DNA of 64,000 bases from an uncultured virus (IMG/VR IMGVR_UViG_3300046820_002883) (Duplodnaviria > Heunggongvirae > Uroviricota > Caudoviricetes): IMG/VR virus record IMGVR_UViG_3300046820_002883. The stretch is one strand, 5' to 3'. Position 1 is the first letter of the stretch. Every line of letters begins with the position of its first letter. The notes under the pieces are model-generated. The model did not search any database. It was given only the letters and a program-made list of their open reading frames with translations, and was not told where the DNA came from. This document shows, piece by piece, positions 5,754 through 47,585 of this stretch. Position numbers and translations under genes: made by a program.

Positions 5754-6098
5754 TTATTTGGTTATTCTACTTTCTTCGAAGAACTCAACGATTGCGTTGA
5801 TTGCCCAAACAGAACCCGCCGTGAACATTCCATCAAAGAAAATTGCGGGTAACCACCCGATTCCAAATTGTGTTGTTAATCCACCCAAACATAATGAGAA
5901 GAAAAAACCAACCCATGTTGATGTACATAACATACAACTTATTAGTCCTGAAATAAATTTACCGAGACCTTGAAGAGGAAGAAATGGGTTATTACCCCAC
6001 TTGTGAATTGATTGTCGAGTACTTTCAAAAATAGAACCATAAACTAATATAGTTGTCATTCCGTACGCAGCAACCATCCAAATAATGATTTGTGTCAT
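5754..6098 (-). CDS. Small multi-TM membrane protein with CxxC (DUF1360-like)
   Basis: LISCMLCTSTWVGFF motif, about three TM segments; start placed at ATG 6098 downstream of a promoter-like motif. Confidence 0.7.
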   Translation of the reverse strand: MTQIIIWMVAAYGMTTILVYGSIFESTRQSIHKWGNNPFLPLQGLGKFISGLISCMLCTSTWVGFFFSLCLGGLTTQFGIGWLPAIFFDGMFTAGSVWAINAIVEFFEESRITK

Positions 6099-7453: not shown

Positions 7454-8304
7454 TTTAAATAACTTTTAATGTCCATTTGTAAGATACCTTGATTAATTTC
7501 GTTTGGTACTTTGTACTCGACGTACTCACCTGTATCTTTTAAGTGAGTGATAACACATCCCAACATCTTAATGTCTTTAAATTTGGTGTTTTCCAACATC
7601 TTTAACAACAACTTACCATACAAAGGTAATTGAATATAGTAATGAGTTAATGCGGTGTCATAAAAATTTTCAAAAGGATGTAACATTTTACCAGTATAGG
7701 GTTGAATCTTGAAGTTCTTCTCTTGGTTTGTTTTCCAATCCGTCACCACAAGACCAAAACTATCTTTTTGTTTATTCATCATTAACCAAACCTTATCAGG
7801 TTGTCCCGTATAACCAAACTCAGGGTCCCCCAACACGATTTCTGTATCAAGTAAAACTGCACCTCTTTCGTGCATTAAATCTAAGAATTTTTTACCACCA
7901 TAAATCATTTGGTTACTCTTATCAATCTGAGAGTTATCACATTCAAATATTGGTTGTCGAACATCTTTATAGTTGTTGTATTGTTGTACTAAATCACTCT
8001 CTAACACATAGTGTACTCTACTCCCTAAATTGGTTGAGTAGTCTCCTGCGGCTTTCCACTTTTCAAGTAATCGTTGTGATTCGGACTCATCACCATCGGT
8101 CATATCGTATGCCTTTGATTCCGCATCAAATGGTATATAAAATTTCTTTATCACTTTAGATACCGATGGGAAATTACTTTTAATCTTCCCATCTAAATCT
8201 TTCATATAGTAAATGTGTTCATCCTCTATGAAAGTTAATTCAAGTTCTTGTCTTCTTTTTTCAAGAGCCTCTCTAATCTCTTGTGCTATTTTTTTTAAAT
8301 CCAT
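7450..8304 (-). CDS. PD-(D/E)xK exonuclease (lambda-exo/Cas4-like superfamily)
   Basis: GSRVH, E..GQPD..TDWKT, HYYIQLPLY motifs. Confidence 0.85.
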   Translation of the reverse strand: MDLKKIAQEIREALEKRRQELELTFIEDEHIYYMKDLDGKIKSNFPSVSKVIKKFYIPFDAESKAYDMTDGDESESQRLLEKWKAAGDYSTNLGSRVHYVLESDLVQQYNNYKDVRQPIFECDNSQIDKSNQMIYGGKKFLDLMHERGAVLLDTEIVLGDPEFGYTGQPDKVWLMMNKQKDSFGLVVTDWKTNQEKNFKIQPYTGKMLHPFENFYDTALTHYYIQLPLYGKLLLKMLENTKFKDIKMLGCVITHLKDTGEYVEYKVPNEINQGILQMDIKSYLK

Positions 8305-9245
8305 TAGTCTAATTTATATTCTTTATAATTTTCTAAATTACCTTCCAAATCGGCAATATCTTTATCTAAAGGTAGTTTCACAATGTTAACCTTACCCATT
8401 AATTTACCACAATTCATTTTGTGATATAATCTCTCAGCATCATTCCACGCATCTCCATCCAAAACAATAGTCACTTCACATTTATTATCATAAATTTTAT
8501 TGTAAAGTACTTCACTGATATATTTTCCTAACATTGGAATTGCGTTGTCCAAAAAAATCGAATCGAACGCCCCCTCAACTAAGTATATTTTCTTAGTCCA
8601 ATCAATTAAACTTTCATTAAAGATGATTAACTCTTTTTGTACATCGGGGTTTTTATATTTCATTTTTGTTTTTAACAAATATGAACGAGCAATAAAATAG
8701 TTGATTCTCCTGTGTTCGTCGTAAGATGGGATGATTATTCTATTTTCATATGGACCACCAAAACAAAAACCGATATTGAACTTACGAACAATTTTATCGG
8801 TTATGTTTCTTTTTTTCAAGTACGCAACTGCTTGTTTGTAATGGTGAGTTAACTTCATACCATCACTAACCATACTTAAAGGAACAAATTCGGGTGGTAG
8901 TTTAACTTCTTTCTTTACAAATGAAGCAACAAACTCAACGTCTTCCGGTTTTAACAACTCATATCTTTTAAGTTGTTTAGGAGTACCGTATTTTTTAACT
9001 AATTTATAGATTGAACCATGGGTGCCGTTAGTTTCAGCACATGACCAACACTTATAAACTGAACGTTTGTAGTTTATTTCTAAATTACCCTTACCGTCAC
9101 CATCGTCTAATCCTTTAATATCATAAGAACAAACAGGACAATCAAATGATATTTGACCCTTATAGTCATTATGCATTCGATAGTCCCCAAGAATATCTTC
9201 GAGTATCTCGATAAGTGGTTCATATTGTGGGTCCATAGATGACAT
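8304..9245 (-). CDS. DNA primase (Zn finger + TOPRIM)
   Basis: CPVC...CWSC zinc ribbon, RIIIP, KYKNP, LVEGAFD, LDGD; start ATG 9245 or 9236 (ORF track TTG 9263). Confidence 0.92.
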   Translation of the reverse strand: MSSMDPQYEPLIEILEDILGDYRMHNDYKGQISFDCPVCSYDIKGLDDGDGKGNLEINYKRSVYKCWSCAETNGTHGSIYKLVKKYGTPKQLKRYELLKPEDVEFVASFVKKEVKLPPEFVPLSMVSDGMKLTHHYKQAVAYLKKRNITDKIVRKFNIGFCFGGPYENRIIIPSYDEHRRINYFIARSYLLKTKMKYKNPDVQKELIIFNESLIDWTKKIYLVEGAFDSIFLDNAIPMLGKYISEVLYNKIYDNKCEVTIVLDGDAWNDAERLYHKMNCGKLMGKVNIVKLPLDKDIADLEGNLENYKEYKLD

Positions 9246-9295
9246 CCGTAATAATATAAACAAAAAAAGTGAAAATAAAAAATCAGGCGTTAAAA

Positions 9296-9361
9296 TAAAA
9301 AAGGGTGAGAGTTACACCAACAGCTCCCACCCTGTATATTGTCATTCGACAATACCATATG
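9296..9361 (-). ncRNA. Candidate small RNA: hairpin + terminator hairpin whose loop is antisense to the Pro/Thr repeat mRNAs
   Basis: - strand: UAUUGUC-GAAU-GACAAUA hairpin (9337-9354), AGGGUGGGAG-[CUGUUGGUGUAA]-CUCUCACCCU hairpin (9302-9333) then U-run; TTTG-N20-TATAAT immediately upstream. Confidence 0.5.
9297..9333 (-). terminator. Rho-independent terminator
   Basis: 10-bp GC-rich stem (one G-U on the - strand), 12-nt loop, followed by UUUUUAUUUU. Confidence 0.85.
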
Positions 9362-9362
9362 T

Positions 9363-9394
9363 AAATTATAAGAAATAAAAATTAAAAAACCAAA
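9363..9394 (-). promoter_or_regulatory. Bacteroidota sigmaA-like promoter (TTTG-N20-TATAATTT)
   Basis: TTTG at 9394-9391, TATAAT at 9370-9365; same architecture upstream of the SSB gene (TTTG-N20-TATATTTT) and of the gene starting at 6098. Confidence 0.5.
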
Positions 9395-9397
9395 ATT

Positions 9398-9874
9398 TTA
9401 GTAATTTAAAATAGCATTTGACACCGACATGTTTAATGTGATGTCCGTAACGTCGTCATTAGAATAGTCCAAATTACTGAAGTCTACAGTATTAATCCTA
9501 CCGTATATTGTCCAATCTGACACAACGGTTCCTACGGGGTCCAACATCTGAAGTTTTAGAACAATTGGGTCGTAAATTGACTCGTCAACCATTAATTCAT
9601 AAATTCTTCGTGACATAGATGGCTCAATAGGGTCGTATAAAACAAAAGACATGTCATCCCAAGACGAAACATTATTGTGCATAACGTTTGTTGGTCTTGA
9701 TGCCATTCTAACATAATATTGGGGGATGTCAAAGGATTGAGGAAACGTTACCAAAAATCTATTGACTCTCATCGGTTCGAAAACCGGAATCCTATTTTGT
9801 TGTTGGTTTGGTGTTTCATCACTAACTTGTTGGGGTTGGTTTGTAAATCCTCTAAGTAGTTTGAATTTGGACAT
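9398..9874 (-). CDS. Tail tube protein-like (T4 gp19 family) paralogue
   Basis: FEPMRVNRFLVTF, LYDPIEPS, LQMLDPVGTVVSDW, FSNLDYS motifs typical of myovirus tube proteins. Confidence 0.8.
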   Translation of the reverse strand: MSKFKLLRGFTNQPQQVSDETPNQQQNRIPVFEPMRVNRFLVTFPQSFDIPQYYVRMASRPTNVMHNNVSSWDDMSFVLYDPIEPSMSRRIYELMVDESIYDPIVLKLQMLDPVGTVVSDWTIYGRINTVDFSNLDYSNDDVTDITLNMSVSNAILNY

Positions 9875-10479
9875 TACTTTTCAGTGCTTTTTTGCATATT
9901 AACATAACCAATAACCGCCGTTGCCGCATCACTCATGTCGTAATTCTCTTTTTTTAAGTTACCGGTTTTACCGTATAACCATTTTACTTCAGGACAAACA
10001 GTATTAACGTTTTCCCAAATGATATGTTTCTTATCGATATCTTTTGGTAAACCTCCAAACAGTACATTCTTACCTTTATCGTTTTTACCAACTAAACTTG
10101 GAAACGCAAATTTTCTTGCGTTGTAGGTCGAGATAAAAGTCGGAACAATACCTAAGATTTCATAACATGATTTTAAAATCATGGTGTTATATCTAAGTAG
10201 AGTTCCTACAGTGTAGATGTTATTTGAATTTAATAGTGGTTCTTCAATTACTACCTTGGTGATACCGACATCCCTGTAGTTCTCCATATGTATTCTGAAA
10301 GCATCCGCTTTCTTCAACATCTCTTCGATTTTGTCTTCAGGTTGTGGTTTTATCTTAGGTGAGAAATGTGTCAATTCTAATAATTTAGAAGAATTAACAT
10401 CAAATAGCGCCCATCCGATGGTCTTTGTTGAAATATCCAACCCCAAAATTTTGGGTGTATTCTTTAGTTTTGTGCTCAT
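9874..10479 (-). CDS. ruvC: RuvC-like Holliday junction resolvase
   Basis: ILGLDISTKTIG, VVIEE, DMSDA acidic catalytic motifs. Confidence 0.88.
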   Translation of the reverse strand: MSTKLKNTPKILGLDISTKTIGWALFDVNSSKLLELTHFSPKIKPQPEDKIEEMLKKADAFRIHMENYRDVGITKVVIEEPLLNSNNIYTVGTLLRYNTMILKSCYEILGIVPTFISTYNARKFAFPSLVGKNDKGKNVLFGGLPKDIDKKHIIWENVNTVCPEVKWLYGKTGNLKKENYDMSDAATAVIGYVNMQKSTEK

Positions 10480-10518
10480 ATAAGAATATATAACGCATAT
10501 TTTGGTAAAAGTAAAGAC

Positions 10519-12709: not shown

Positions 12710-15118
12710 TTACATACATCCTCCGGAACCTGTCATTGGTACAATTGTGTAATTAGTTCCAAGTGATGGTGGTGGTACTGATGAGTCCGCCCATGCCACA
12801 CTAATTGAACCATAGTAAATTGGTAACGTACAAATACATCCTTGTTGTCCCGTGGCTAAAACGAATGTTTGTGAATCACCACTACAATCATTATATGTGA
12901 ATCTTATTGAATCTGTACCGTTTGGATTTCCTCCTGATGGTGTTGTATTTTCAACATCATAACAAGAACATGGGTTTGTTGAAGTTGGTGTTGGTGTAAG
13001 AGATTGTGTAACTGCTGGAGTTGCGGTAGGAGTAACAGATTGTGTAACTGCTGGAGTTCCACCCGGTGTTGATGTAGGAGTAACGGCAGGTGTTCCTGAA
13101 GGTGTAACCGCCGGTGTTCCTGCTGGTGTTCCTGTTGGTGTTGGGGAAGTGGTAGGTGTAACTGTAGGAGTAAGTGTTATAGTTGGAGTAACTGTCGGAG
13201 TAACTGTTTTTGTTGGAGTAACTGTAGGAGTAGATGTAGGTGGTGCTCCACAACATTCATCAGAACTATCACAACAATCATCAAGATTTATTCGATAAGT
13301 ATTTTCACAACATCCACTACACGATAGTTTTACATAAATTTCTAAAAGACTTGCACTTATCCCCGTTAAACTACATGATTGTCCCGTTCCCATGTTTGTA
13401 CAATATGTGGAACCTGTAATATTTGTTGGGGTTGTTCCAGTATAAACATCACAATCAGTATGAATTGAACCTGAGTTAAAGTTAATCAAAACACTTTTTG
13501 GTGTTACAGTATCTCTAACACAAGCACCTTGACTTGGTGATACTGTTGGTGTAATTGTGATGGTTGGAGTTATAGTTGGTGTAGGTGTAACAGATTGTGT
13601 AATTGTTGGTGTGACTGTTGGTGTAACAGATTGTGTGACCGCAGGTGTTCCACCCGGTGTTCCTGTTGGTGTTCCTGAAGGTGTTATTGCCGGTGTTCCT
13701 GAAGGTGTTATTGCCGGTGTTCCTGTTGGTGTTACAGATTGTGTAACCGCAGGAGTACCTGTTGGTGTAACTGATTGTGTAACCGCAGGAGTACCTGTTG
13801 GTGTAACTGATTGTGTAACCGCTGGTGTTCCACCCGGTGTTCCTGTTGGTGATGGTGTGGTTGTTATTGAAGGGGTTGAGGTAGGTGTAACTGACTGAGT
13901 AACTGCGGGAGTTGCCGTAGGTGTAACTGACTGAGTAACTGCAGGTGTTGCAGTAGGTGTGACTGACTGAGTAATTGATGGTGTCCCTGTTGGTGTTGAT
14001 GTTGGTGTGACTGACTGAGTAACTGCGGGAGTTGCTGTAGGTGTAACAGATTGTGTAATTGTTGGTGTGACTGTTGGTGTAACAGATTGTGTAACCGCCG
14101 GTGTTCCTGTAGGGGTTACGGATTGTGTAATTGTTGGTGTTACTGTTGGGGTTACACTATTTGTTGGTGTAATGGTTGGAGTTATTGTTGGTGTTGATGA
14201 TGGTGTCTTAGTAGGTGTGGGGGTTGGTGATGTGATAGAATCACAGTTTTGATTATCCGCACAACCACCATTTGCAAAAACGGAAATGTTAGTCGGGTCA
14301 CTAAATGTTATTGTTTGATTGTCAAAACATACACATTGGTAAACCGTACCCAATGGAGGAATTGTCCCCGTAATTTGGAGTTGGTTATAACAGTCGGTAT
14401 ATGAATATGTAATTGTGGTACCATCAGTACTAACAATTCTTTTACATACACAATCAGTACATAATGTTTGTGGTGTGGTAGTTGGAGTTGGTGTTGGTGT
14501 AACTGACTGAGTAACCGCAGGTGTTCCTGTTGGTGTGACTGAAGGTGTAATTGCTGGTGTTTGTGGGGGGTTTAATGTTATTGTTGGTGTGGGTGTTGGT
14601 GTTATGGTAGGTGTAGGTGTTGGAGTTGGGTCAGGACATTCACCCGTACAAACACCACCTTGTACCAATTCACCACCTTCATATGATGGAGTTTCAAATG
14701 CACAAAATTTATAACTCGTTAAAGGCGAGACCGGTATATTTTGAACGTCACCATTACAGTCAACATAATCAACAGTTAGTGTATTGGTGGGGTCATTATT
14801 ATAAAAATACCAACAATAACAAATTTGTGGCGTAGGAGTGGGTGTTGGAGTAGGGGTTGGGGTTGCTTGTGTTTCTTCACAATTACCATCAGGTACAATA
14901 TTAATATTTGTACCATTCAGGTTCGTTATTCCCGCGCCTTGACCATCATCACCAACGCACGGATAAAAAGTTGGTGCTAAACCGTTTAACCTTATGTTGG
15001 TACCAATAGGAATACTGATGGGTCCAACCGGTGTGGAGGTACAATCAATGTATGATATACTACACGGTACAGGATTACCCGCGAGACAGTAAACACCGTA
15101 TTTAAAACAACCTGCCAT
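12710..15118 (-). CDS. Cys-rich, Pro/Thr-repeat (mucin-like) putative virion fibre/adhesin, 802 aa
   Basis: Cys-rich modules alternating with TPTPT and TPAVTQSVTPT blocks; lies in the structural cluster. Confidence 0.85.
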   Translation of the reverse strand: MAGCFKYGVYCLAGNPVPCSISYIDCTSTPVGPISIPIGTNIRLNGLAPTFYPCVGDDGQGAGITNLNGTNINIVPDGNCEETQATPTPTPTPTPTPQICYCWYFYNNDPTNTLTVDYVDCNGDVQNIPVSPLTSYKFCAFETPSYEGGELVQGGVCTGECPDPTPTPTPTITPTPTPTITLNPPQTPAITPSVTPTGTPAVTQSVTPTPTPTTTPQTLCTDCVCKRIVSTDGTTITYSYTDCYNQLQITGTIPPLGTVYQCVCFDNQTITFSDPTNISVFANGGCADNQNCDSITSPTPTPTKTPSSTPTITPTITPTNSVTPTVTPTITQSVTPTGTPAVTQSVTPTVTPTITQSVTPTATPAVTQSVTPTSTPTGTPSITQSVTPTATPAVTQSVTPTATPAVTQSVTPTSTPSITTTPSPTGTPGGTPAVTQSVTPTGTPAVTQSVTPTGTPAVTQSVTPTGTPAITPSGTPAITPSGTPTGTPGGTPAVTQSVTPTVTPTITQSVTPTPTITPTITITPTVSPSQGACVRDTVTPKSVLINFNSGSIHTDCDVYTGTTPTNITGSTYCTNMGTGQSCSLTGISASLLEIYVKLSCSGCCENTYRINLDDCCDSSDECCGAPPTSTPTVTPTKTVTPTVTPTITLTPTVTPTTSPTPTGTPAGTPAVTPSGTPAVTPTSTPGGTPAVTQSVTPTATPAVTQSLTPTPTSTNPCSCYDVENTTPSGGNPNGTDSIRFTYNDCSGDSQTFVLATGQQGCICTLPIYYGSISVAWADSSVPPPSLGTNYTIVPMTGSGGCM

Positions 15119-15150: not shown

Positions 15151-15888
15151 TTAACATCCACTTCCAACTACACCCAAATCGTTTGGTGTTCCGGTTATTA
15201 CATCATATATATGTCCTGATTGTTGAAAGAATCCTGACCATGTTGTTGTCAATGAGGTGGTTGTGTAGATTACGGTACTTGGGTCTGTAATTGACGTTAC
15301 ACTCGGTAAAGTATAAACCGTTACACTATAACTACTGTAACAACCTAATACTCCGGCACATGTACTATTACAGGCCAGTAAGTTCCAAGATTTATACCCA
15401 ATACTGGGTGTTGGAGTAGGGGTTTTTGTTGGTGTTGGTGTACGAGTTGGTGTTACAGTTGGTGTACGAGTTGGAGTAGGGGTTTTTGTTGGTGTAGGGG
15501 TTTTTGTTGGTGTTGGTGTACGAGTTGGTGTTACAGTTGGTGTACGAGTTGGGGTAGGGGTTTTTGTTGGTGTAGGGGTTTTTGTTGGTGTAGGTGTCGG
15601 ACTTACCGGTATTAATACACAATCAGAACATCTTAAATCAATGAGTGACATTTTATAACTGTCAATTTCACAATGTTTAATAAAAACAAAAACTGAAGTT
15701 ATTGAACTTTCAGCATTTAATTGAAATGAATATGTTGTTCCCGTTATTGGAATTAATGAGTTATTCCCATTAATGTAATTGGCGTTACTAATATTTGAGG
15801 TTAACCCCGTATAAATATAATATCCACTGCAAGGTGTTAAACCAGCAAAGTTCGATATCGTTACATTATATGTTTTTATTAACGCCAT
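15151..15888 (-). CDS. Two-domain protein with TPT(K/R) linker, putative virion fibre component
   Basis: 245 aa; TATTTAT motif at 15894-15900. Confidence 0.85.
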
Positions 15889-15954
15889 ATACCATAAATA
15901 TAAAAATTATGGTTTTAAAATAAAGTCTAAAGAATTTTATTTAAAAAAGAAGAA

Positions 15955-16821
15955 TTAACAAGAGATTATATCGATTTGTAAAGTGGTTGTACCCGATGGT
16001 ATAGTGTAGTTATACACGGGTATTTGTGATAAAGAACTACCTGAATTGGTATATACACTCACCCCATTTCTTATGATATCATAAGAAATTCCCGCAGGTC
16101 CATATGATGTACATCCAGCACCTGTTGTGGATTCAAATAAAGAAATATTAATTACATCACCAACAGATACAGTTGTTGACCCATTTGTGGTCCCAACTGA
16201 TTGTGTAAAACTAACGGTAAAGAATGTTGTACCATTTTTCTTCAACGTACCCGATGTTTTGGCACAAACATCACATTTATCGTAGGAATATGATAGGGTG
16301 AATGTACTTGATAAGGATGTTGTTGGGGTCGGAGTAGGGGTTTTTGTTGGTGTTGGTGTACGAGTTGGAGTAACAGATGGTGTACGGGTTGGTGTTACAG
16401 TTGGTGTACGAGTTGGAGTAGGGGTTTTTGTTGGTGTTGGTGTACGAGTTGGTGTTACAGTTGGTGTACGAGTTGGAGTAGGGGTTTTTGTTGGTGTAGG
16501 GGTTGGGGTACCGTCAAGATAAGAACCTGTACAATTTGAATCAACATCAAAACACATTGTATTATAACATGGATATGCATTAGTATCGTGAGTGTAGATA
16601 TTTTTAATAATGTATCTACCTGTTGTTTGGTCGGTCATTTTAACCCAATATTGGGTATTAAAACTTAAACCACTAATTGTTACTTCATTTGAAGTTAAAC
16701 CTGTATTGAACAAGGTGAACGTTGAATCGGTCGTTTCAGGATATGGTGACGCTCCGGTCTTATACCTTAAAGTATATGGTCCGTCAAAAACAATATTGTA
16801 TAATTTTACATTTAATCCCAT
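15955..16821 (-). CDS. FN3-like domain + TPT(K/R) linker + beta domain, putative virion fibre component
   Basis: 288 aa; [16 protein letters not shown] resembles an FN3 strand pattern; TATTTAT motif at 16831-16837. Confidence 0.85.
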
Positions 16822-16857: not shown

Positions 16858-19800
16858 TTAACAATCACATCCACCGTATGTTGGATTACATTCAGTTCCG
16901 CAGTTACCAACTTGTGAAGCTGTAGAGTTCGGTGCCACCACATAATTTCCGCCTACTATTATGTATAAACCAAAGAATTGTATTGCACATTTTCGCCATG
17001 TACCAGGAGGTAATGCTTCATTTTCCCATGTACTTTGACAACATTGATAAAATGCATGTACTTGACCGTCTGATGAAGCCGCAGCGTCTGCTGGGTCAAC
17101 ATTAATTTCCCAACAGTTACACTGATTTGCGTCGGGATTACAATCACCGACCAATGAAACGGCGGCATTTCCTCCGTTCACGTTTACACTACCTACACAG
17201 GCACAAAAGTCAAGTCGATAACCAGTCGCGGCTATAATCTCGGGGGTGATAATAACTGAAGAGGATGGGTCACAACAAGTTTGGTAATCGATAGATTGTA
17301 CATTAGGAGTAATTGAATCAATTCGGTATTTTTTACAAACACATCCCGGAATTGATGGTGTTGGGGTAGGTGTTGGTGTATTAGTTGGTGTTGAAGTTGG
17401 TTGTGGTGATTCTGATGGTGGAGGTGTCGATGCTACTGTTCTTGTTGGTGTAGGTGTTGGTGTTGGTGTTATAGTACGAGTAATAGTTGGTGTAACTGTT
17501 GGTGTAACTGTTGGTGTAACTGTTGGGGTTATAGTACGAGTAATTGTTGGAGTTATCGTAGGGGTAACTGTTGGGGTTAATGTAGGTGTAGGTGTTCTTG
17601 TTGGTGTAACAGATTGTGTAACTGCAGGAGTTCCACCCGGTGTTCTGGTTGGTGTAGGTGTTACACTAGTTGTTGGGGTAATTGTTGGTGTAATTGTTGG
17701 TGTAATGGTAGGTGTTACAGTTGGTGTTATTGTTCTTGTTGGTGTAATGGTAGGAGTAATGGTTGGTGTAATAGTCGGTGTGATTGTAGGTGTGATTGTA
17801 GGTGTGATTGTTCTTGTCGGTGTAATTGTGGGAGTTGATGTAGGAGTTGGTGTTGGACAAGGTCTTGCAACAACACATTCATTACAAGTAGCAAATGTAC
17901 CGGTTGGTGTGTAAACAGTGAGGAACGAATTAAATAAAATTACAGTTGCGTTACTATAACAAAATCCATTAATTACATATGCAAATGATGGGTTAGCAAT
18001 TATGGCATTAAAATCGGCCTGTGTTACGTTAAATTCAAAACCATCAGGACTACAACAACTAACCATTCTTATCGAAACATAAACAGTTGTTGGTGTTACC
18101 GTAGGAGTAACGCTAGTTGTAGGTGTAATTGTAGGTGTAATTGTAGGTGTTCTAGTCGGTGTTACTGTTGGAGTGATAGTCGGTGTTACCGAAGTAGTCG
18201 GTGTAATGGTAGGTGTTATTGTTGGAGTTACTGTGGGAGTTATAGTTGGAGTAACCGATGGGGTAACAGCGGGAGTACCTGTTGGGGTAATGGTTGGTGT
18301 AATGGTTGGTGTTACAGAATTTGTTGGGGTAATGGTTGGAGTAATGGTCGGTGTGATGGTAGGTGTTACCGTTGGAGTAACTGAAGTAGTTGGTGTGATT
18401 GTGGGGGTAATGGTTGGAGTTATTGTCGGAGTTCTAGTTGGAGTAATGGTTGGTGTAACTGATGTGGTTGGAGTTATAGTTGGTGTAATAGTCGGAGTAA
18501 CGGTAGGAGTTACTGTTGGCGTAATAGTAGGAGTTACTGATGTAGTTGGCGTAATAGTAGGAGTTACAGTTGGAGTAATTGTAGGAGTTACTGTTGGCGT
18601 AATAGTAGGAGTTACTGATGTAGTTGGCGTAATAGTAGGAGTTACAGTTGGAGTAATTGTAGGAGTTACTGTTGGCGTAATAGTTGGAGTTACTGAAGTT
18701 GTTGGGGTAATGGTCGGTGTGATTGTAGGGGTAATTGTTGGTGTTTGAGTCGGTGTCAACGTTGGAGTTACAGAAGTTGTTGGTGTAATCGTTGGTGTTA
18801 CTGTTGCGGTTCTAGTTGGAGTTACTGACGGTGTAATTGTCGGTGTAACTGATGTTGTTGGTGTTATAGTAGGGGTAATAGTAGGAGTTACTGTCGGGGT
18901 AATAGTTGGTGTGATAGTAGGAGTTACCGATGTTGTTGGAGTTATAGTTGGAGTGACTGTTGGTGTAACTGTAGGGGTAATAGTAGGAGTTACTGTTGGT
19001 GTAACTGATGTTGTTGGTGTAATAGTAGGTGTAACCGTTGGTGTTATGGTTGGTGTTACTGACGGTGTGATGGTAGGAGTCACTGATGTTGTTGGTGTGA
19101 TGGTAGGAGTGACTGTTGGGGTAATAGTCGGTGTTATAGTAGGTGTAACCGAAGTCGTTGGGGTAATGGTAGGTGTGATTGTGGGTGTTACGGTTGGTGT
19201 AACAGATGTAGTTGGTGTTATAGTTGGAGTAATGGTTGGTGTTATTGTGGGTGTTACGGTTGGTGTAACAGATGTAGTTGGTGTTATCGTTGGGGTAATG
19301 GTTGGTGTTATTGTGGGTGTTACGGTTGGTGTAACAGATGTAGTTGGTGTTATCGTTGGGGTAATGGTTGGAGTAACTGTAGGGGTAACTGTAGGTGTAA
19401 CAGATGTAGTTGGTGTAATAGTTGGAGTGACTGTTGGTGTAACTGTTGCAGTTCTAGTTGGGGTAATTGTTGGTGTTACAGAAGTTGTTGGGGTTATTGT
19501 AGGTGTAATAGTTGGTGTGACTGTAGGGGTAACTGTAGGTGTTACTGTAGGAGTAACTGAGGTAGTTGGCGTTACAGATGTGGTTGGGGTTATAGTCGGA
19601 GTAACTGTTGCAGTTATAGTTGGAGTTACAGTAGGTGTAACTGAGGTTGTAGGAGTAATGGTTGGGGTGATGGTAGGTGTTACAGTTGGTGTTACTGTTG
19701 GTGTGACTGAGGTTGTAGGTGTAATGGTAGGAGTAATGGTTGGTGTTACGGTAGGGGTAATAGTTGGTGTTATAGTTGGAGTAACTGAGGTAGTGGGTGT

Positions 19801-22800
19801 TATTGTTGGTGTTACCGTTGGGGTAATAGTTGGTGTAACACTAGTTGTTGGTGTTATAGTTGGTGTAATTGTAGGTGTAACAGTTGGAGTTACTGTTGGG
19901 GTTACAGAAGTTGTTGGAGTAACTGATGTTGTTGGTGTGATGGTCGGAGTCACTGTAGGTGTAATCGTAGGAGTTACCGTAGGTGTTACTGTTGGAGTTA
20001 CTGATGTTGTTGGAGTAATAGTCGGAGTTACCGTTGCAGTTCTGGTTGGTGTAACGGTTGGTGTGACAGTTGGTGTAATTGATGTTGTAGGTGTAATGGT
20101 AGGAGTGACCGTAGCAGTTACTGTTGGAGTAATAGTTGGAGTAACTGACGTGGTTGGTGTAATAGTAGGTGTTACCGTAGGTGTTTGGGTCGGCGTAACT
20201 GAAGTTGTTGGAGTAACCGTAGGTGTGATTGTTGGTGTAACTGTTGGAGTAACTGATGTTGTTGGTGTTATAGTAGGAGTAACCGTAGGGGTCTGAGTAG
20301 GTGTTAGTGTTGGGGTTACTGATGTTGTAGGGGTAATTGTAGGTGTAATAGTAGGGGTTACTGTTGGAGTAATTGTAGGTGTTACTGAAGTTGTTGGAGT
20401 AATGGTTGGCGTGATGGTAGGAGTGGTTGTTGGTGTAACTGATGTAGTTGGCGTGATGGTTGGAGTTACGGTTGGGGTAATGGTTGGTGTTACTGAGGTT
20501 GTAGGGGTAATGGTTGGAGTAACTGTTGGAGTAATAGTTGGCGTAACCGAAGTAGTCGGTGTAATAGTTGGTGTTACTGTTGGGGTAATAGTCGGAGTAA
20601 CAGTTGGTGTAACGGAAGTTGTTGGTGTAACGGAAGTTGTTGGCGTTATTGTAGGTGTCACCGTAGGTGTTTGAGTCGGTGTGATTGTTGGTGTAACTGA
20701 AGTAGTTGGTGTAATAGTCGGAGTAACTGTTGGGGTAACCGAAGTTGTTGGAGTTATTGTAGGTGTTACCGTTGCGGTCCTAGTTGGAGTTATAGTTGGG
20801 GTTACAGATGTAGTTGGTGTTACTGATGTAGTAGGGGTGATAGTCGGTGTTACAGTCGGTGTGATTGTAGGTGTTACTGTTGGAGTTACAGAAGTTGTAG
20901 GTGTAATTGTTGGTGTTACTGTTGGAGTTATAGTTGGTGTAACTGAGGTTGTAGGAGTAATGGTTGGGGTGATGGTAGGTGTTACTGTTGGAGTTACAGA
21001 AGTTGTAGGTGTAATTGTTGGTGTTACTGTTGGAGTTATAGTTGGTGTAACTGAGGTTGTAGGAGTAATGGTTGGGGTGATGGTAGGTGTTACAGTTGGT
21101 GTTACTGACGTGGTTGGTGTTATTGTAGGAGTAACCGTAGGTGTTTGAGTCGGTGTCAACGTTGGAGTTACTGATGTTGTAGGGGTAACGGAAGTAGTTG
21201 GAGTAATGGTAGGTGTAATTGTAGGTGTTACTGACGGTGTAATGGTTGGCGTAACCGAAGTAGTCGGTGTAATAGTTGGTGTTACTGTTGGAGTAACCGT
21301 CGGAGTTATAGATGTAGTTGGAGTTACCGTTGGAGTAATTGTAGGTGTTACTGTAGGTGTAACTGAGGTAGTCGGTGTGATTGTGGGTGTAATGGTAGGA
21401 GTAACAGTTGGAGTAACTGTTGGTGTTACAGATGTAGTTGGTGTTATTGTAGGAGTTACTGTCGGGGTAACCGTAGCAGTTCTAGTGGGGGTGATTGTAG
21501 GAGTAACAGAGGTAGTTGGAGTGATGGTCGGAGTAACTGTCGGGGTAACTGTTGGCGTAACTGTTGGAGTTACTGATGTTGTTGGAGTAATGGTTGGAGT
21601 TATAGTTGGAGTAACCGTTGGAGTAACAGATGTGGTTGGTGTTATGGTCGGAGTGATTGTTGGAGTTACCGTAGGAGTAACAGAAGTTGTAGGGGTTACA
21701 GTAGGTGTTTGAGTCGGTGTTATCGTTGGAGTTACCGAAGTTGTTGGAGTAATGGTTGGAGTTATAGTTGGAGTTACTGTTGGTGTTACTGTTGGTGTTA
21801 CGGAAGTTGTTGGTGTTGTAGTTGGAGTAATAGTCGGTGTTACTGTTGCAGTTCTAGTTGGAGTGATGGTTGGTGTGACAGAAGTTGTTGGAGTTATAGT
21901 CGGCGTTACCGTTGAAGTTATAGTTGGCGTAACTGTAGGTGTTACAGATGTAGTTGGTGTTATTGTTGGAGTAACTGTAGGTGTTACAGATGTAGTTGGT
22001 GTTATTGTTGGAGTAACTGTAGGTGTTTGAGTTGGTGTAACTGTCGGGGTGACAGAAGTTGTTGGAGTAATTGATGTAGTTGGGGTTATTGTTGGTGTAA
22101 CTGTTGCAGTTATAGTTGGGGTAATGGTCGGTGTGACAGAAGTTGTTGGTGTGATTGTAGGAGTTACTGTTGGGGTAACTGTAGGTGTTACTGAGGTAGT
22201 GGGTGTTATAGTTGGAGTAACTGTAGGTGTTACTGTCGGGGTAACTGAGGTTGTTGGTGTTATTGTAGGAGTAATAGTAGGAGTTACTGTTGGAGTTACA
22301 GATGTTGTGGGAGTAATAGTCGGTGTTACCGTAGCAGTTCTAGTTGGAGTGATTGTAGGAGTGACAGAAGTAGTAGGTGTTATAGTAGGAGTAATGGTAG
22401 GAGTTACTGTTGGTGTAACAGAAGTCGTTGGTGTGATAGTAGGAGTTACTGTCGGTGTTTGAGTCGGAGTAATTGTGGGTGTTACAGATGTAGTAGGAGT
22501 TACGGATGTTGTTGGCGTGATTGTCGGTGTAACCGTTGCAGTAACGGTAGGTGTCACCGTTGGGGTAACAGATGTTGTCGGTGTTATTGTTGCGGTAACT
22601 GTCGGCGTTACGGTTGGTGTAACAGAGGTAGTTGGAGTAATAGTTGGGGTTACAGTTGGTGTAACAGTTGGTGTAACCGAAGTTGTCGGTGTGATAGTAG
22701 GTGTTACGGTTGGAGTAACTGTAGGGGTAACGGTAGGTGTTACCGAAGTCGTAGGAGTTATTGTTGGCGTTACCGTAGCAGTTCTAGTCGGTGTTACTGT

Positions 22801-25800
22801 TGGAGTGATAGTCGGTGTTACTGATGTTGTTGGTGTAATAGTCGGAGTTACCGTTGCGGTTACGGTTGGAGTTACCGTAGGAGTAACAGATGTTGTTGGT
22901 GTAATTGTAGGGGTTACTGTAGGTGTAATTGTCGGGGTAACCGATGTAGTTGGAGTAATGGTTGGAGTAACTGTTGGTGTTTGAGTCGGTGTAACAGAGG
23001 TTGTGGGTGTGATTGTCGGTGTAACCGTTGCAGTAACGGTAGGTGTCACCGTTGGGGTAACAGATGTTGTCGGTGTAATAGTAGGAGTTACCGTTGGAGT
23101 AATAGTTGGTGTAACTGAAGTTGTTGGTGTAATAGTTGGGGTTACAGTTGGTGTGACAGTTGGTGTAACCGAAGTTGTCGGTGTGATAGTAGGTGTAACC
23201 GTTGGTGTTATGGTTGGTGTTATGGTTGGCGTAACAGAAGTAGTTGGTGTTATCGTTGGCGTAACTGTTGATGTAACTGTAGGTGTCACTGTTGGGGTAA
23301 CAGAAGTTGTGGGGGTAATTGTTGGTGTCACCGTAGGTGTTACCGTAGGTGTTACTGATGTGGTAGGTGTGATTGTAGGTGTGATTGTGGGTGTCACAGT
23401 AGGAGTAACAGATGTTGTTGGTGTAATGGTAGGGGTTACAGTAGGAGTTTGAGTCGGTGTCAACGTCGGTGTTACGGAAGTTGTTGGCGTAACTGAGGTT
23501 GTAGGAGTAATAGTCGGAGTTACCGTAGCAGTTCTAGTTGGGGTAATTGTAGGGGTTACCGATGTTGTTGGTGTTATAGTTGGAGTAACCGTTGGTGTCA
23601 CCGTTGGGGTAACACTGGTTGTTGGTGTTATAGTTGGGGTAACTGTAGGAGTAACAGTTGGAGTTACTGATGTCGTAGGAGTAACCGTTGGTGTTTGGGT
23701 AGGTGTCAACGTTGGTGTAACCGAAGTGGTTGGAGTTACCGTTGGAGTAATTGTAGGTGTTACCGTAGGTGTTACAGAAGTAGTTGGAGTTACAGTTGGT
23801 GTTATTGTCGGAGTTTGAGTCGGTGTGATGGTTGGAGTCACCGAAGTCGTTGGTGTTATAGTTGGGGTAATGGTTGGGGTTACTGTTGGGGTTCTAGTTG
23901 GAGTTACCGTTGGAGTGACAGATGTTGTGGGGGTAACTGATGTCGTTGGAGTAATGGTTGGTGTTACAGTTGCCGTAACTGTAGGTGTAATTGTTGGGGT
24001 TATAGATGTAGTTGGAGTTACAGTTGGGGTAATAGTCGGAGTAATAGTAGGCGTAACTGAAGTAGTTGGTGTTATTGTTGGTGTCACGGTTGGTGTTACC
24101 GTCGGTGTTACCGATGTTGTCGGTGTTATTGTAGGTGTTACAGTTGCCGTAACAGTAGGTGTCACAGTTGGGGTAACAGATGTAGTTGGTGTAATCGTTG
24201 GAGTAACCGTAGGTGTTTGAGTTGGTGTTACTGTTGGGGTTACACTAGTTGTTGGAGTAATTGTAGGAGTAACTGTCGGAGTTACTGTTGGTGTAACAGA
24301 AGTTGTGGGAGTAATTGTAGGTGTTACCGTAGCGGTTCTGGTTGGGGTAACTGTTGGTGTTACAGATGTGGTTGGTGTAACCGATGTTGTTGGAGTAATG
24401 GTTGGCGTGATGGTAGGAGTGGTTGTTGGTGTGACAGTTGGTGTCACAGAGGTAGTTGGAGTAATAGTAGGTGTTACCGTCGGTGTTTGAGTCGGTGTTA
24501 CTGAAGTAGTTGGTGTAATGGTAGGTGTAACTGTCGGAGTTACGGTTGGTGTGATTGAAGTAGTTGGTGTGATTGTGGGAGTTACTGTTGCGGTAACAGT
24601 GGGGGTTACTGTTGGAGTAACTGAGGTAGTTGGTGTAACTGATGTGGTAGGAGTTATAGTTGGAGTAACTGTTGCGGTTCTAGTTGGGGTAATAGTTGGG
24701 GTAACTGAGGTAGTCGGTGTGATAGTAGGTGTTACTGTAGGTGTTACCGTTGGTGTTACTGATGTTGTAGGAGTTATAGTTGGCGTAATGGTTGGTGTTA
24801 CCGTCGGTGTAACTGTAGGAGTGACACTAGTTGTCGGTGTAATTGTAGGTGTAATAGTAGGGGTTACTGTTGGAGTAATTGTAGGTGTTACTGAAGTTGT
24901 TGGAGTAATGGTTGGCGTGATGGTAGGAGTGGTTGTTGGTGTAACTGATGTAGTTGGCGTGATGGTTGGAGTTACGGTTGCAGTAACGGTAGGAGTAACA
25001 CTAGTTGTTGGAGTAACTGAGGTTGTTGGGGTAATTGTTGGTGTAATAGTTGGTGTTACAGTAGGTGTTACTGTAGGAGTTACTGATGTTGTTGGGGTTA
25101 TAGTTGGGGTGACAGAAGTAGTTGGCGTGATTGTAGGAGTAACCGTTGCCGTAACTGTAGGTGTTACTGTTGGAGTTACAGATGTTGTAGGAGTTACCGT
25201 TGGAGTAACAGATGTAGTTGGTGTTATAGTAGGAGTAACCGTAGGGGTCTGAGTAGGTGTTAGTGTTGGGGTTACTGATGTTGTAGGTGTTATAGTCGGT
25301 GTTATAGTTGGAGTTACTGTTGGTGTAACTGAGGTAGTTGGTGTAATAGTTGGAGTTACTGTTGGTGTAACTGTAGGGGTTACGGTGGGTGTTACCGATG
25401 TTGTCGGGGTTACTGATGTAGTTGGAGTTACAGTTGGTGTTATTGTCGGAGTTTGAGTCGGTGTCAACGTCGGTGTAACACTAGTTGTTGGAGTAATAGT
25501 TGGTGTTACTGTTGCAGTAACGGTAGGTGTCACCGTTGGGGTAACAGATGTTGTCGGTGTTATTGTTGGGGTAACTGTTGGTGTTACGGTTGGTGTTACG
25601 GTTGGTGTAACTGAAGTTGTTGGCGTGATGGTTGGAGTAATGGTTGGTGTTTGAGTTGGGGTAACTGAAGTTGTTGGTGTAATAGTTGGGGTCACTGTCG
25701 GTGTTACTGTTGGTGTTACTGTTGGTGTTACCGATGTAGTTGGAGTAATAGTAGGTGTAACCGTTGGGGTAACAGAGGTTGTTGGTGTAATGGTTGGTGT

Positions 25801-28800
25801 TACCGTGGCAGTTCTAGTGGGTGTAATGGTAGGTGTAATCGATGTAGTTGGAGTAACCGATGTAGTTGGAGTGATTGTCGGTGTAACGGTTGGAGTAATG
25901 GTAGGTGTAATTGTTGGTGTTACGGTTGGTGTGATTGAAGTAGTTGGCGTAATAGTCGGAGTTACTGTGGGAGTAACTGTCGCAGTTCTCGTTGGGGTAA
26001 TGGTTGGAGTAACAGAGGTTGTTGGTGTTACAGATGTTGTAGGAGTGATAGTAGGGGTGACTGTTGCGGTAACTGTCGGCGTTACGGTTGGTGTAACTGA
26101 AGTGGTTGGTGTTATCGTTGGTGTAACGGTGGGTGTGACAGTTGGTGTTACAGATGTTGTAGGAGTGATAGTAGGGGTGACTGTTGGTGTAATTGTAGGT
26201 GTAACCGAAGTTGTAGGGGTTATAGTTGGTGTAATAGTAGGAGTTATAGTTGGAGTTATAGTTGGGGTAACCGATGTAGTTGGTGTTACAGAAGTCGTTG
26301 GTGTGATAGTTGGTGTAATAGTGGGAGTTTGAGTGGGAGTGATAGTTGGTGTTACTGAAGTTGTTGGTGTAATTGTAGGAGTGATTGTAGGTGTTACAGT
26401 TGGTGTTACTGAAGTGGTTGGAGTTATTGTGGGTGTTACCGTTGCAGTTCTAGTTGGAGTTATAGTTGGGGTAACCGATGTAGTAGGAGTTACTGAAGTA
26501 GTAGGGGTAATGGTTGGAGTAATTGTGGGGGTTACAGTAGGTGTTACAGTTGGTGTTACTGAAGTGGTTGGAGTAACTGTAGGTGTCACAGTTGGAGTAA
26601 CCGATGTAGTTGGAGTCGCGGTAGGGGTAATGGTTGGAGTAATTGTGGGGGTTTGGGTTGGTGTAACCGATGTTGTTGGTGTTATAGTTGGAGTAACAGT
26701 TGCAGTAACTGTAGGTGTCACAGTTGGAGTAACCGATGTTGTTGGTGTAATGGTTGGAGTAACTGTAGGGGTTACGGTGGGTGTTAATGTTGGGGTTACT
26801 GATGTTGTAGGTGTGATGGTTGGTGTAACTGTTGCAGTAACTGTAGGTGTCACAGTTGGAGTAACACTAGTTGTTGGCGTTACCGATGTTGTTGGTGTAA
26901 TGGTTGGAGTAACTGTAGGGGTTACGGTGGGTGTTAATGTTGGGGTTACTGATGTTGTAGGTGTGATGGTTGGTGTAACTGTTGGTGTAACCGATGTAGT
27001 AGGGGTAATGGTTGGAGTAATTGTGGGGGTTCTAGTTGGTGTTATAGTTGGTGTTACAGATGTAGTAGGAGTTACGGATGTTGTTGGCGTAATTGTAGGG
27101 GTTACTGTAGGTGTTTGAGTAGGAGTTCCTGTTGGAGTTATAGAAGTGGTCGGCGTTACTGTTGGAGTGATAGTTGGTGTTACTGTGGGGGTAACTGAAG
27201 TCGTAGGAGTAATAGTTGGTGTTACTGTAGGGGTAATGGTTGGTGTTACTGAAGTAGTTGGAGTTACTGTGGGTGTGATGGTTGGGGTTATAGTTGGTGT
27301 TCTAGTTGGGGTTACTGAAGTTGTTGGTGTAACGCTAGTAGTTGGAGTAATTGTAGGAGTAACTGTAGGAGTTTGAGTCGGTGTCAACGTTGGTGTAACA
27401 CTGGTTGTTGGTGTAATGGTTGGTGTTACTGATGGCGTAATGGTCGGTGTTACCGAAGTTGTTGGGGTGATGGTTGGTGTAATAGTTGGAGTGATTGTGG
27501 GAGTGATGGTTGGTGTAACTGAAGTCGTAGGAGTTAGAGTTGGAGTTGTGGTCGGAGTAACAGAGGTTGTTGGAGTAACGGTTGGTGTGGTTGTTGGGGT
27601 TACTGTGGGAGTCCTAGTAGGAGTAACAGAGGTTGTTGGTGTCAATGTTGGTGTAACTGAAGTCGTAGGAGTTATAGTTGGGGTTACTGTTGAAGTAACA
27701 GTTGGTGTAACGGTTGGAGTTACACTAGTAGTTGGGGTTATAGTTGGTGTAATAGTAGGAGTTACTGTTGGTGTAACAGTTCTAGTTGGGGTAACTGTCG
27801 GAGTTATAGTTGCGGTAACAGTAGGAGTTACGGTTGGAGTAACTGATGTAGTTGGTGTTATAGTCGGCGTAATAGTTGGAGTAACCGTTGGGGTGATTGT
27901 GGGAGTAATTGTTGGTGTTTGCGTCATTGTTGGAGTCGATGTTGGGGTCGGACTCGGTATCATTGTATAATCAATATCACATGCAGGTGCTGGTGTTACA
28001 GTTGGTGTCGGTGTAAATGTTGGAGTTACAGAAGTTGTTGGTGTAATCGTTGGTGTTACTGTTGCGGTAAGTGTTGGTGTTACTGTAGGTGTAACAGAAG
28101 TAGTTGGAGTGATAGTAGGTGTAACCGTAGGGGTTACTGAAGTCGTTGGTGTAATAGTTGGTGTTACTGTCGGTGTCTTAGTAGGGGTGATAGTTGGTGT
28201 TATAGATGTTGTTGGCGTGATTGTAGGTGTTATAGATGTTGTTGGCGTGATTGTAGGTGTAACTGTTGCGGTAACTGTTGGTGTCACCGTTGGAGTTACT
28301 GAAGTTGTTGGTGTAATGGTAGGGGTAACTGTTGGTGTAACTGAAGTCGTAGGAGTAATGGTAGGTGTGACTGTAGCGGTTCTAGTTGGAGTAATGGTTG
28401 GGGTCACACTAGTTGTAGGGGTTACTGAAGTCGTAGGAGTGATTGTTGGTGTTATTGTCGGAGTTTGAGTCGGTGTCAATGTAGGAGTTACAGATGTGGT
28501 CGGGGTAACGGTAGGTGTAATCGTTGGTGTAACTGAAGTTGTTGGTGTAATTGTAGGAGTGATTGTTGCCGTTACAGTTGGTGTAATAGTAGGAGTAACT
28601 GAAGTTGTTGGGGTAATAGAGGTTGTTGGTGTAATCGTTGGAGTTATAGTTGGTGTAATGGTTGGTGTAACAGTAGGTGTTACCGTAGGGGTAACAGACG
28701 TTGTTGGTGTAACTGAAGTTGTTGGAGTAATTGTGGGAGTAACCGTTGCGGTAACTGTAGGTGTAATAGTAGGCGTTACAGATGTTGTTGGAGTGATTGT

Positions 28801-36885: not shown

Positions 36886-38049
36886 TTATTGTTTTCTTAC
36901 ATTAAAATATCCATTTCCGTAATTAACCATTTCACCAATACTATCAATTTCAGATAATCTTAATGTTTTTTCCATTACACCTTGTTTACCTCTTTCAACA
37001 AATATGTCAGAGTAAATAACAGGTTCGTCAATGAATCCTATGAAATGTTCGTTTCTTGTTATCATGTGATTTATAACTTCTTCTTTTGTATAACCAGATG
37101 TTGAACCTGTTATAGTTGTAATTCCGTCTTCAAAATCTTGATAATATAAATTATCAATTGTGTATGCACTGTATGCAACACCTGATGTTGTTCCGGTTGT
37201 TACACCACTATAGGTGTTTGAACCATAAAGTTTCAACTCACTAATTCTACTCTTACCAATCGCAGCATAGTTGAATGTTGTGAATCCTGTTGTACTGTTA
37301 CTATACTCTAAATCGTTCAAATAGTCAATGGTTTGTCCACTAATTGTTGTGTATGGTATTGTAAATCCACTAAATGTTCCAAGAGGATTTAATACTGTCG
37401 TATTTGAAGGTATTTGAATAACTTTTTTAGTTTGGAAATTTGTCCAAGGTGTTTGTATTGATATAGAAACAAGGGTTTCTCCCGTTCCTGTGTATGTTTT
37501 TGTTGCGGTAATGTTTGTTGTGGATAAAATACTTTGAGTACCATCACCCCAATCAACTGTAAAATCAATTTCATGAATTTCAGATACTTTAGTTGTGTCT
37601 ACAGTATTGTAAACCTGTAACGTGTTACCTGTTTGAGTATATGAGAAGTTACACATTTGTTCAACTTGTTCCATTTGACCATCAAATCCAACCATAACAC
37701 CCATTTCATCAACCGATGTTTCCAAGAATACAGGTAATTTATTATCATCATATGCTTGGCTCTTTTGAATCGATTCCCAACCATATAAATCCAACGTCAA
37801 ATCACAACCTGAACCTCCACTTGAGAAATTTGATATAGTTGAACCTGTCCATAGATAATAACCTAAAGAAAGTGTGTCGTTGGTGTTATAAACTATCTCA
37901 CCATCTACCGGTGGTAGTGTTGGGTCTATTGACCATGGAACCAAGTTACCCTCAGAATCATACCAAAAAGGTCCCGTTAACGAATATAGATTTACGTTTG
38001 GGATGTACTTCCTGAGTATCTGGTATTTATATTTTTCTTTTGGGTTCAT
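36886..38049 (-). CDS. Structural protein with PKD-like domain
   Basis: FTVDWGDGT...KTY motif. Confidence 0.75.
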   Translation of the reverse strand: MNPKEKYKYQILRKYIPNVNLYSLTGPFWYDSEGNLVPWSIDPTLPPVDGEIVYNTNDTLSLGYYLWTGSTISNFSSGGSGCDLTLDLYGWESIQKSQAYDDNKLPVFLETSVDEMGVMVGFDGQMEQVEQMCNFSYTQTGNTLQVYNTVDTTKVSEIHEIDFTVDWGDGTQSILSTTNITATKTYTGTGETLVSISIQTPWTNFQTKKVIQIPSNTTVLNPLGTFSGFTIPYTTISGQTIDYLNDLEYSNSTTGFTTFNYAAIGKSRISELKLYGSNTYSGVTTGTTSGVAYSAYTIDNLYYQDFEDGITTITGSTSGYTKEEVINHMITRNEHFIGFIDEPVIYSDIFVERGKQGVMEKTLRLSEIDSIGEMVNYGNGYFNVRKQ

Positions 38050-47149: not shown

Positions 47150-47189
47150 ACCTATAAATATAAACAAAGATGAATTACTAATAAATAAG

Positions 47190-47557: not shown

Positions 47558-47585
47558 AAAAAAAATCCCGACATATGCCGGGATT
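47558..47585 (-). terminator. Rho-independent terminator downstream of nrdA
   Basis: AAUCCCGGC-AUAU-GUCGGGAUU followed by U-run on the - strand. Confidence 0.88.

Follow-up and report, generated by a model that had tools for sequence, protein, structure and literature searches.

A conserved structured small RNA beside the primase gene of uncultured phages and its complementarity to PT-repeat genes

Organization of the locus

The window, the whole 64,000-nucleotide stretch of uncultured-virus DNA analyzed here, carries all of its genes on the minus strand, and no tRNA genes were found in it. Between 9394 and 9291, the minus strand carries a promoter-like TTTG-N20-TATAAT motif followed by two hairpins, one of 8 bp and one a terminator whose 10-bp stem encloses a 12-nt loop and is followed by a U-run. 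This layout had been proposed in the original prediction, and both the sequence and the fold bear it out. The features discussed below are:

8304..9245, minus strand: DNA primase gene (phrog_47, E 2e-38), directly downstream of the RNA
9253..9258, minus strand: TATATT box 7 nt before ATG 9245, putative primase promoter of the leaderless type
9291..9301, minus strand: terminator U-run, from the sequence
9296..9358, minus strand: predicted small RNA of ~62 nt, with a putative start at ~9358 and a putative end in the U-run; covariance-model match at 9295-9369 (21.6 bits)
9302..9333, minus strand: terminator hairpin with a 10-bp stem and the 12-nt loop CUGUUGGUGUAA, from sequence, fold and terminator scan
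9310..9323, minus strand: 14-mer with 11 perfect complements in the repeat genes, from an exact-match search
9314..9321, minus strand: conserved seed GUUGGUGU, complement of ACACCAAC, with UGGUG invariant in the family
9336..9355, minus strand: hairpin 1, 8 bp with loop GAAU, from the fold, with compensatory changes in relatives
9365..9370, minus strand: -10-like box TATAAT of the small-RNA gene, from the sequence
9391..9394, minus strand: promoter-like upstream element TTTG, from the sequence, with a 20-nt spacer before the -10 box
9398-9874, minus strand: 158-aa gene with a weak tail-tube match (phrog_4542, E 0.0065)
9874-10479, minus strand: RuvC-like gene, preceding the 158-aa gene
12710..15118, minus strand: 802-aa PT-repeat gene with two exact 14-mer sites
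15151..16821, minus strand: two smaller PT-linker genes of 245 and 288 aa, from ORF and composition analysis
16858..31539, minus strand: giant PT-repeat gene of 4893 aa with 251 ACACCAAC sites at a median spacing of 42 nt
47564-47585, minus strand: another strong terminator, from the terminator scan
54977-55015, minus strand: another strong terminator with a perfect 13-bp stem and the 13-nt loop TTACTTGGACAAT, from the terminator scan

The terminator stem is formed by 9333-9324 pairing with 9311-9302, including one G-U pair, and encloses the loop at 9323-9312. Seven G-C pairs in this stem, with UUUUUUAUUUU directly after it, mark an intrinsic terminator, and the layout is common to 61 of 76 related loci. 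The RNA region folds with a minimum free energy of -24.1 kcal/mol (z = -2.5). The start near 9358 was placed by the box-to-start spacing, by analogy with the primase gene. Only three strong intrinsic terminators occur on the gene strand of the window; as one of them, the RNA hairpin also ends the long upstream unit. The loops of the other two are unrelated to that of the RNA terminator. The terminator at 54977-55015 might be more than a plain terminator.

For the primase, the most likely start codon is ATG 9245 (MSSMD...), in agreement with relatives, and not the TTG 9263 of the ORF list. A TATA(A/C/T)T box 6-8 nt before this ATG is conserved in relatives, which argues against the RNA being a primase leader attenuator or riboswitch. 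Four genes of the window have such a box ahead of their ATG at a distance of 5-8 nt, namely those for the primase (9253-9258), the RuvC-like protein (region of 10485-10490) and the 245-aa protein (region of 15897-15902) and one that starts near 47138 (~47150), all on the minus strand; the arrangement suggests leaderless-type promoters and an independent primase transcript. The gene near 47138 probably starts at the ATG there instead of the listed TTG at 47167. On the upstream side, the flanking gene had been described as a tail-tube gene. The 158-aa gene is indeed present, yet its tail-tube identity is only weakly backed by the match to phrog_4542, and no PDB match was obtained for its protein.

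The giant PT-repeat gene is a single ORF built of (V/I/T/S)TPT units, and its product consists of 47% Thr and 20% Pro. Its message contains 35.9% C and 8.3% G, compared to 13-20% C and 16-21% G in other genes, a composition like that of a continuous Rho-loading site.

Part of the window was matched in a single RNA library, by a 151-nt contig over 9210-9361 with 3 differences and 1 gap; such a metatranscriptome contig indicates presence in an RNA library, gives no strand, ends or level, and may derive from library DNA. Four runs contained a variant ~3-7% divergent. Among the shared differences listed for these runs, 16 fall in 9400-9874 and none in 9296-9394, which is at most a weak hint at constraint.

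Distribution and structure of the RNA in related phages

A blastn search of window positions 8300-10500 against cultured-phage records gave no match. The nearest cultured-phage protein is the primase of Flavobacterium phage immuto, with 34% identity to that of the window. Relatives were obtained as 76 IMG/VR loci seeded by primase homologues of 44-83% identity. In 61 of the 76 loci, a terminator hairpin with GGTG in its loop lies just upstream of the primase gene, and the stems differ wholly between loci. The 15 loci without the RNA are those with a primase identity of at most 54%.

A promoter of its own is predicted for the RNA gene. A conserved TATA(A/C/T)T or TATATTTA box lies 6-9 nt before the conserved 5' end of the RNA, and a TTTG or TTTACA element stands 17-20 nt further up. 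The TTTG-N19/20-TATAnT arrangement of the window recurs in loci L001, L005, L027 and L030; distant relatives, read by eye, have TTTACA/TTTACT-N17-TATATT ahead of the RNA. The consensus of the distant members comprises the TATATTTA box, AGGACGGGAC, a hairpin with a GAAA loop, GUUUGGUUGGUG, a terminator with the loop (A/G)GUGGUGU, and a run of nine U.

RNAalifold predicted 17 pairs from 21 distant members, 12 of them with compensatory changes. A covariance model, R1, was built from these 21 sequences and found a single copy in 58 of 79 sources, including the window (E 0.24). Graded intermediates were L028 (55 bits), L033 (32 bits), and L030 and L027 (~25 bits each). In L008, L035, L053 and L067 the element is present by inspection, with model matches weaker than E = 1 (L008, 16.8 bits). 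Among 30 distinct model-aligned rows, 94.7% of the cells are paired, compared to 61% in shuffles and at most 54% in slid controls, and 16 of 17 pairs show changes on both sides; none of 500 shuffles reached the observed values, although the alignment was fitted to the model and the structure is therefore favored by the fitting. Within the terminator stem, 8 of 9 pairs changed on both sides. A separate alignment of the close group of the window yielded the same hairpins, with compensatory changes in 7 of 17 pairs and an invariant TGGTG.

Scanning IMG/VR with an 18-base pattern matched at least 118 stretches, of which 80 were fetched. The covariance model verified 27 of these, 18 of them on new contigs, and in all 27 the primase gene starts 26-70 nt downstream of the RNA. 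The other fetched stretches were not verified by the model and are chance matches, as expected for a pattern of 18 bases. Together with the 61 RNA-bearing primase-seeded loci, in which the primase gene is likewise directly downstream, the RNA unit is present in ~79 contigs. Whole records contain one copy each, including a 93%-complete genome of 310 kb. The model did not find the RNA in five whole records of RNA-less relatives; a lone match in L089 (E = 0.37) lies in coding sequence by inspection. The pattern scan of a bacterial and archaeal genome collection returned one stretch, which the model rejected.

A search of the whole window against Rfam 15 gave no match at the gathering threshold and none at relaxed E-values. 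The best sub-threshold scores were 31.3 bits for PyrR (threshold 54 bits, L031) and 20.1 bits for FTHFS (threshold 72.6 bits, window). A literature search did not find a description of such an RNA, and a term search of PMC12619734 gave no occurrence of 'small RNA' or 'threonine'.

The RNA gene is probably of single origin. Where the RuvC-like and primase genes are adjacent in RNA-less loci (L056-58, L061, L073, L076), the former ends 29-115 nt before the latter. In most RNA-bearing loci this gap measures 138-196 nt and is filled by the RNA, and genes that were inserted in addition lie upstream of it, such as the 158-aa gene of the window group and those found in L010-16, L025 and L053. From this pattern, the RNA gene probably arose once in the RuvC-like/primase gap and remained next to the primase gene; the family would have arisen in a clade of large freshwater phages, probably with Bacteroidota hosts. 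The 158-aa gene itself is confined to the subgroup of the window (window, L001-L009, L027, L030, L072), inserted between the RuvC-like and RNA genes.

It is very probable that the locus encodes a genuine small RNA, conserved and structured, whose family is absent from Rfam; this is a new small-RNA family rather than a chance hairpin. The small RNA with terminator that had been predicted is thus retained, its promoter-like box, terminator and covarying stems being conserved. An alignment of relatives had been named as a test: stem covariation with a conserved loop was found across the ~79 contigs, and the loop core is conserved among relatives that keep the repeat genes.

Conservation and placement of the seed

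UGGUG in the terminator loop is invariant across the family. The RNA occurs in 31 distinct variants, 29 of which hold GUUGG or UUGGUG unpaired, in the linker between the hairpins only (18), in the loop only (10), or in both (1). In the 18 linker variants, the unpaired linker contains GUUGG and the loop contains GUGGUGU. The 10 loop variants, among them the window, the L001 type, L018, L027, L028, L030, L053 and L067, lack the linker motif and carry UUGGUG in the loop. Neither arrangement applies to L033, with GGUUGGU further upstream, and L035, with AUGGUGU. From this distribution, one accessible copy of GUUGGUG(U) seems to be what evolution keeps. The conserved part of the RNA is exactly the part complementary to the repeat genes.

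In the L033 variant (~5837-5980), GGUUGG pairs with a downstream CCAACC that serves as an internal copy of the presumed target word. This variant also has an additional hairpin ahead of the terminator.

Complementarity to the PT-repeat genes

The 14-mer CTGTTGGTGTAACT has one minus-strand copy (9310-9323) and 11 plus-strand copies in the window, compared to a mean of 0.01 matches in shuffles. The 11 exact target sites listed in the original prediction were recovered at precisely those coordinates on same-strand messages. All complementary sites lie on the same strand as the RNA gene, 3-22 kb away, so that the RNA is not encoded opposite its targets as a cis-antisense RNA would be. Ranking by frequency, which had been proposed as a check together with the shuffles, placed the target 14-mer at 53 of 11,244 distinct repeat 14-mers. 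It includes the commonest repeat 12-mer, AGTTACACCAAC, with 38 occurrences.

In the four repeat genes, ACACCA, ACACCAA and ACACCAAC are the top 6-, 7- and 8-mers. ACACCAAC reads ACA-CCA-ACN, i.e. Thr-Pro-Thr, and is the complement of the RNA seed; 294 of its 296 gene-strand copies in the window fall within the four repeat genes. The core ACACCAA occurs at 299 sites in 145 distinct 4+3 flank contexts out of 16,384 possible, and random flanks therefore match any of them with P = 0.009. The context matched by the window loop is the top-ranked of the 145. A simulation with only GGTGT fixed and 2000 random flanks gave P = 0.005 for the longest match, P = 0.001 for the mean match length, and P = 0.0005 for the number of sites of at least 10 nt. 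The match thus exceeds chance when the diversity of repeat k-mers is taken into account, the point on which the prediction could have failed. In a scan of predicted duplexes, the window loop reached -15 kcal/mol or lower in 643 of 3116 repeat windows and in 26 of 7526 elsewhere. Five shuffled loops reached this value in 0-12 of the 3116 repeat windows, and the loop of another terminator in none.

Antisense words as such are not restricted to the RNA. In the 45 kb outside the repeat genes, 12 positions at ~8 places carry a gene-strand 14-mer antisense to a repeat 14-mer. Four of these places, at 37539, 37688, 43287 and 61772, are coding sequence antisense to multi-copy repeat words, and the 14-mer at 61772 has 15 targets. 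They probably stem from runs of GTT, GGT and GTA codons. The unusual feature of the match in the RNA is where it sits, in the loop of one of only three strong gene-strand terminators. The messages at the four coding places (61772-61786, 43286-43300, 37539-37552 and 37688-37701, plus-strand coordinates) are antisense to multi-copy repeat words over 14-15 nt, with up to 15 targets.

The repeats show no codon tuning toward the RNA. Codon usage in the repeats resembles that in the other genes (ACA 0.45 vs 0.48; CCA 0.55 vs 0.52), ACA-CCA pairs number 294 compared to 293 predicted from the margins, and only 294 of 1045 TPT tripeptides contain a seed match. Repeat codon usage equals the general usage of the phage; the repeats are therefore not tuned to the RNA, and codon and codon-pair counts found no tuning toward it.

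The core of the match recurs in relatives. ACACCAA/CACCAAC are top or tied-top 7-mers in the PT regions of most relatives examined, and ACACCA, ACACCAA and ACACCAAC lead or tie in most of them. In the genome G011, 80 of 102 ACACCAAC copies are located in PT regions, and ~11 of the remaining 22 lie, from a reading of their contexts, in shorter PT-rich stretches below the threshold. The extension of the match to 14 nt is not reproduced in relatives, and G011 has no site for its own loop 12-mer. Outside the core, significant complementarity is confined to the window and a sister lineage, two cases that share the sequence through common descent; in L027 and L030 it is marginal, and in L035 and L033 it is not significant. 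When loops and repeats were crossed, the window loop fitted its own repeats best, and the G001 loop fitted the repeats of the window better than its own. Among the distant members, the match of the loop GUGGUGU to PT words is limited to 6 nt, and no complement of their conserved 5' motif AGGACGGGAC was found in 802 kb of related loci. The 15 RNA-less loci, including three 98-100%-complete genomes, have PT regions with ACACCAA/CACCAAC at or near the top. Co-variation or co-occurrence with PT genes, expected by the original prediction, was thus not clearly found, and RNA-less relatives keep the repeats.

Distant RNA-less loci (L062, L064-L066, L069-L071) contain large PT-rich genes, with 178-836 PT-rich aa per locus, on the strand opposite to the primase gene. 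The 93%-complete, 310-kb genome G011 (L209 149-6857; L224 3528-10632) encodes 25 tRNAs and a tmRNA. Among these are tRNA-Thr(UGU) and tRNA-Pro(UGG), the tRNAs that read the repeat codons ACA and CCA.

Proposed function and alternative explanations

The element would be an independently transcribed phage small RNA of ~62 nt in the window and ~75 nt in distant relatives. Its probable mode of action is pairing through the GU-rich seed, with base pairing in trans via GUUGGUG(U) as the most likely form. In the window type the seed would stay unpaired within the terminator loop, and in the distant type within the linker that separates the hairpins. Its complementarity suggests, without proof, that the RNA binds the repeat messages. 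The only abundant complement in these genomes is ACA-CCA-ACN in PT-linker and PT-repeat genes, which are therefore the likeliest targets. A trans-acting RNA pairing at many sites along PT-repeat messages as its physiological targets is the main reading, with a probability of about 0.4.

On this main reading, the message of the giant gene could be bound approximately every 42 nt. The idea that one RNA coats many repeat sites, put forward in the original prediction, is supported by the abundant seed complements and is not supported by codon tuning or by co-variation of the RNA with its own repeats. That the Thr-Pro-Thr codon string forms the target set, and that tiling about every 40 nt masks, times or silences the PT messages, is a tentative proposal. 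The outcome slightly preferred among those open to PT-message targeting, itself speculative, is that the RNA would cover ribosome-free, C-rich and G-poor repeat RNA, so that Rho and nucleases could not load. Almost the same probability goes to an outcome in which the repeat messages are silenced or decay. If the seed reads Thr-Pro-Thr codons, one RNA could address many genes through a linker motif, with hundreds of sites per message. Such a system would be the prokaryotic equivalent of microRNAs that target coding repeats, and would offer an answer to how an ORF of 14.7 kb, so rich in Thr and Pro, is transcribed and translated.

A doubtful but serious alternative holds that this is a genuine trans-acting small RNA that is in fact directed at messages of the host, or at a few phage messages outside the repeats. 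The PT match would then arise as a by-product, since ACACCAAC is how any PT linker is encoded in an AT-rich genome. Several observations speak for this explanation and equally against PT-repeat targeting: the repeats follow general codon usage and are untuned (294 vs 293 pairs), RNA-less relatives retain the same PT words, and the AGGACGGGAC motif without a complement in 802 kb hints at partners outside the phage. The lack of clear co-variation between loop and repeats favors host targets as well. Repeat targeting is further weakened by the four coding places with comparable antisense 14-mers by chance. The RNA gene lies in the replication module, and a lambda small RNA is reported to act on host replication genes (10.1101/2024.10.31.621285). 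Against a by-product stands the exact complementarity of the seed to the commonest repeat 7-8-mer, a coincidence of ~1 in 10^4 for a random seed, which the flanks in the window extend to the top-ranked 14-mer context. Ribosomes normally clear sites that lie far within translated ORFs, which counts against the repeats as targets.

Rather unlikely is a cis element of the primase unit, in which the terminator insulates the promoter or controls read-through and the loop or linker is bound by a protein, with no pairing involved. It would account for the invariable position of the RNA immediately ahead of the primase gene, also in loci where inserted genes precede the RNA, and for one of only three strong gene-strand terminators ending a long upstream unit. 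The unpaired parts contain as many as three copies of UGGU, resembling a repeated binding site for a protein, and the sub-threshold resemblance to a PyrR binding site (31.3 vs 54 bits) is weak. However, a conserved promoter-like box precedes the RNA and a second box stands 6-8 nt before the primase ATG; given two separate boxes, the primase gene need not depend on read-through. That one motif is placed in either linker or loop is more in keeping with an accessible seed than with a protein site of two fixed parts, and no candidate RNA-binding gene is linked to the RNA. The related proposal that untranslated repeats invade the loop and modulate read-through in cis found no support.

An ordinary terminator whose loop matches the repeats by chance is very improbable. 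The antisense 14-mers to multi-copy repeat words at four other coding places, and the many chances to meet such a match in a scan over 64 kb, are compatible with it, but the explanation is largely refuted by a loop core that stays invariant while the stems change wholly across ~79 contigs. Moreover, the loops of the other two strong terminators are unrelated, and shuffled loops lose the duplex sites.

The 22-codon ORF (9358-9290) pointed out in the original prediction exists, and its ATG at 9358 sits 6 nt after TATAAT, a spacing as at the primase gene, but a leaderless message for a 22-residue peptide is the least probable explanation of all and a peptide role is unsupported, since the frame and start are not conserved in the sequences of relatives, which by eye lack an ATG there or have an ATG followed immediately by TAG, and conservation tracks base pairs, not codons.

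Trans pairing through the seed is the preferred reading. The comparative support for the family is unusually clean, with ~80 loci, full stem covariation and an invariant seed shifting between linker and loop, and the RNA is open to study as a defined RNA.

Comparison with known systems

Lytic and uncultured phages have so far yielded few small RNAs, and to our knowledge none is known from phages of Bacteroidota. Phage lambda encodes the small RNA LPR1/PreS, which is reported to pair with host messages (10.1101/2024.10.31.621285). In both cases a short phage RNA would base-pair with messages transcribed elsewhere. The lambda RNA reportedly targets host genes in an Hfq-containing host, whereas the host of the window phage is probably a member of the Bacteroidota, and the window seed is GU-rich with its only abundant complements in the phage's own repeat genes. 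An Rfam search gave no sequence or Rfam relation between the window RNA and LPR1/PreS.

The c4 RNA of P1/P7, oop of lambda and sar of P22 are phage RNAs which pair through exposed loops with phage messages. They use one or two sites near a start codon, in contrast to hundreds of sites inside coding repeats here, 3-22 kb away and on the same strand. Staphylococcal RNAs of the RsaE/RNAIII type repeat a short motif in loops and linkers, and their terminator hairpin is functional. A short conserved seed in hairpin loops or between hairpins, and a terminator that is part of the functional RNA, are shared with the window RNA. However, their C-rich seeds bind G-rich ribosome-binding sites, whereas the seed of the window is GU-rich and complements a CA-rich codon string.

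DsrA, ArcZ and RprA block Rho loading at the rpoS leader and prevent premature termination. The masking proposed here would likewise involve pairing with naked C-rich RNA against premature termination, but it would tile a 14.7-kb ORF instead of occupying a single leader site. The microRNA miR-181 targets zinc-finger gene repeats in coding regions. It resembles the window RNA in having many sites per small RNA through a seed match to the coding sequence of a repeated protein motif, and differs in acting through the eukaryotic Argonaute pathway. Comparable targeting of coding repeats in bacteria or phages was not found in the literature searched. The nearest parallels come from the antisense and trans-acting RNAs of phages; microRNAs that target coding repeats resemble the window RNA in logic alone.
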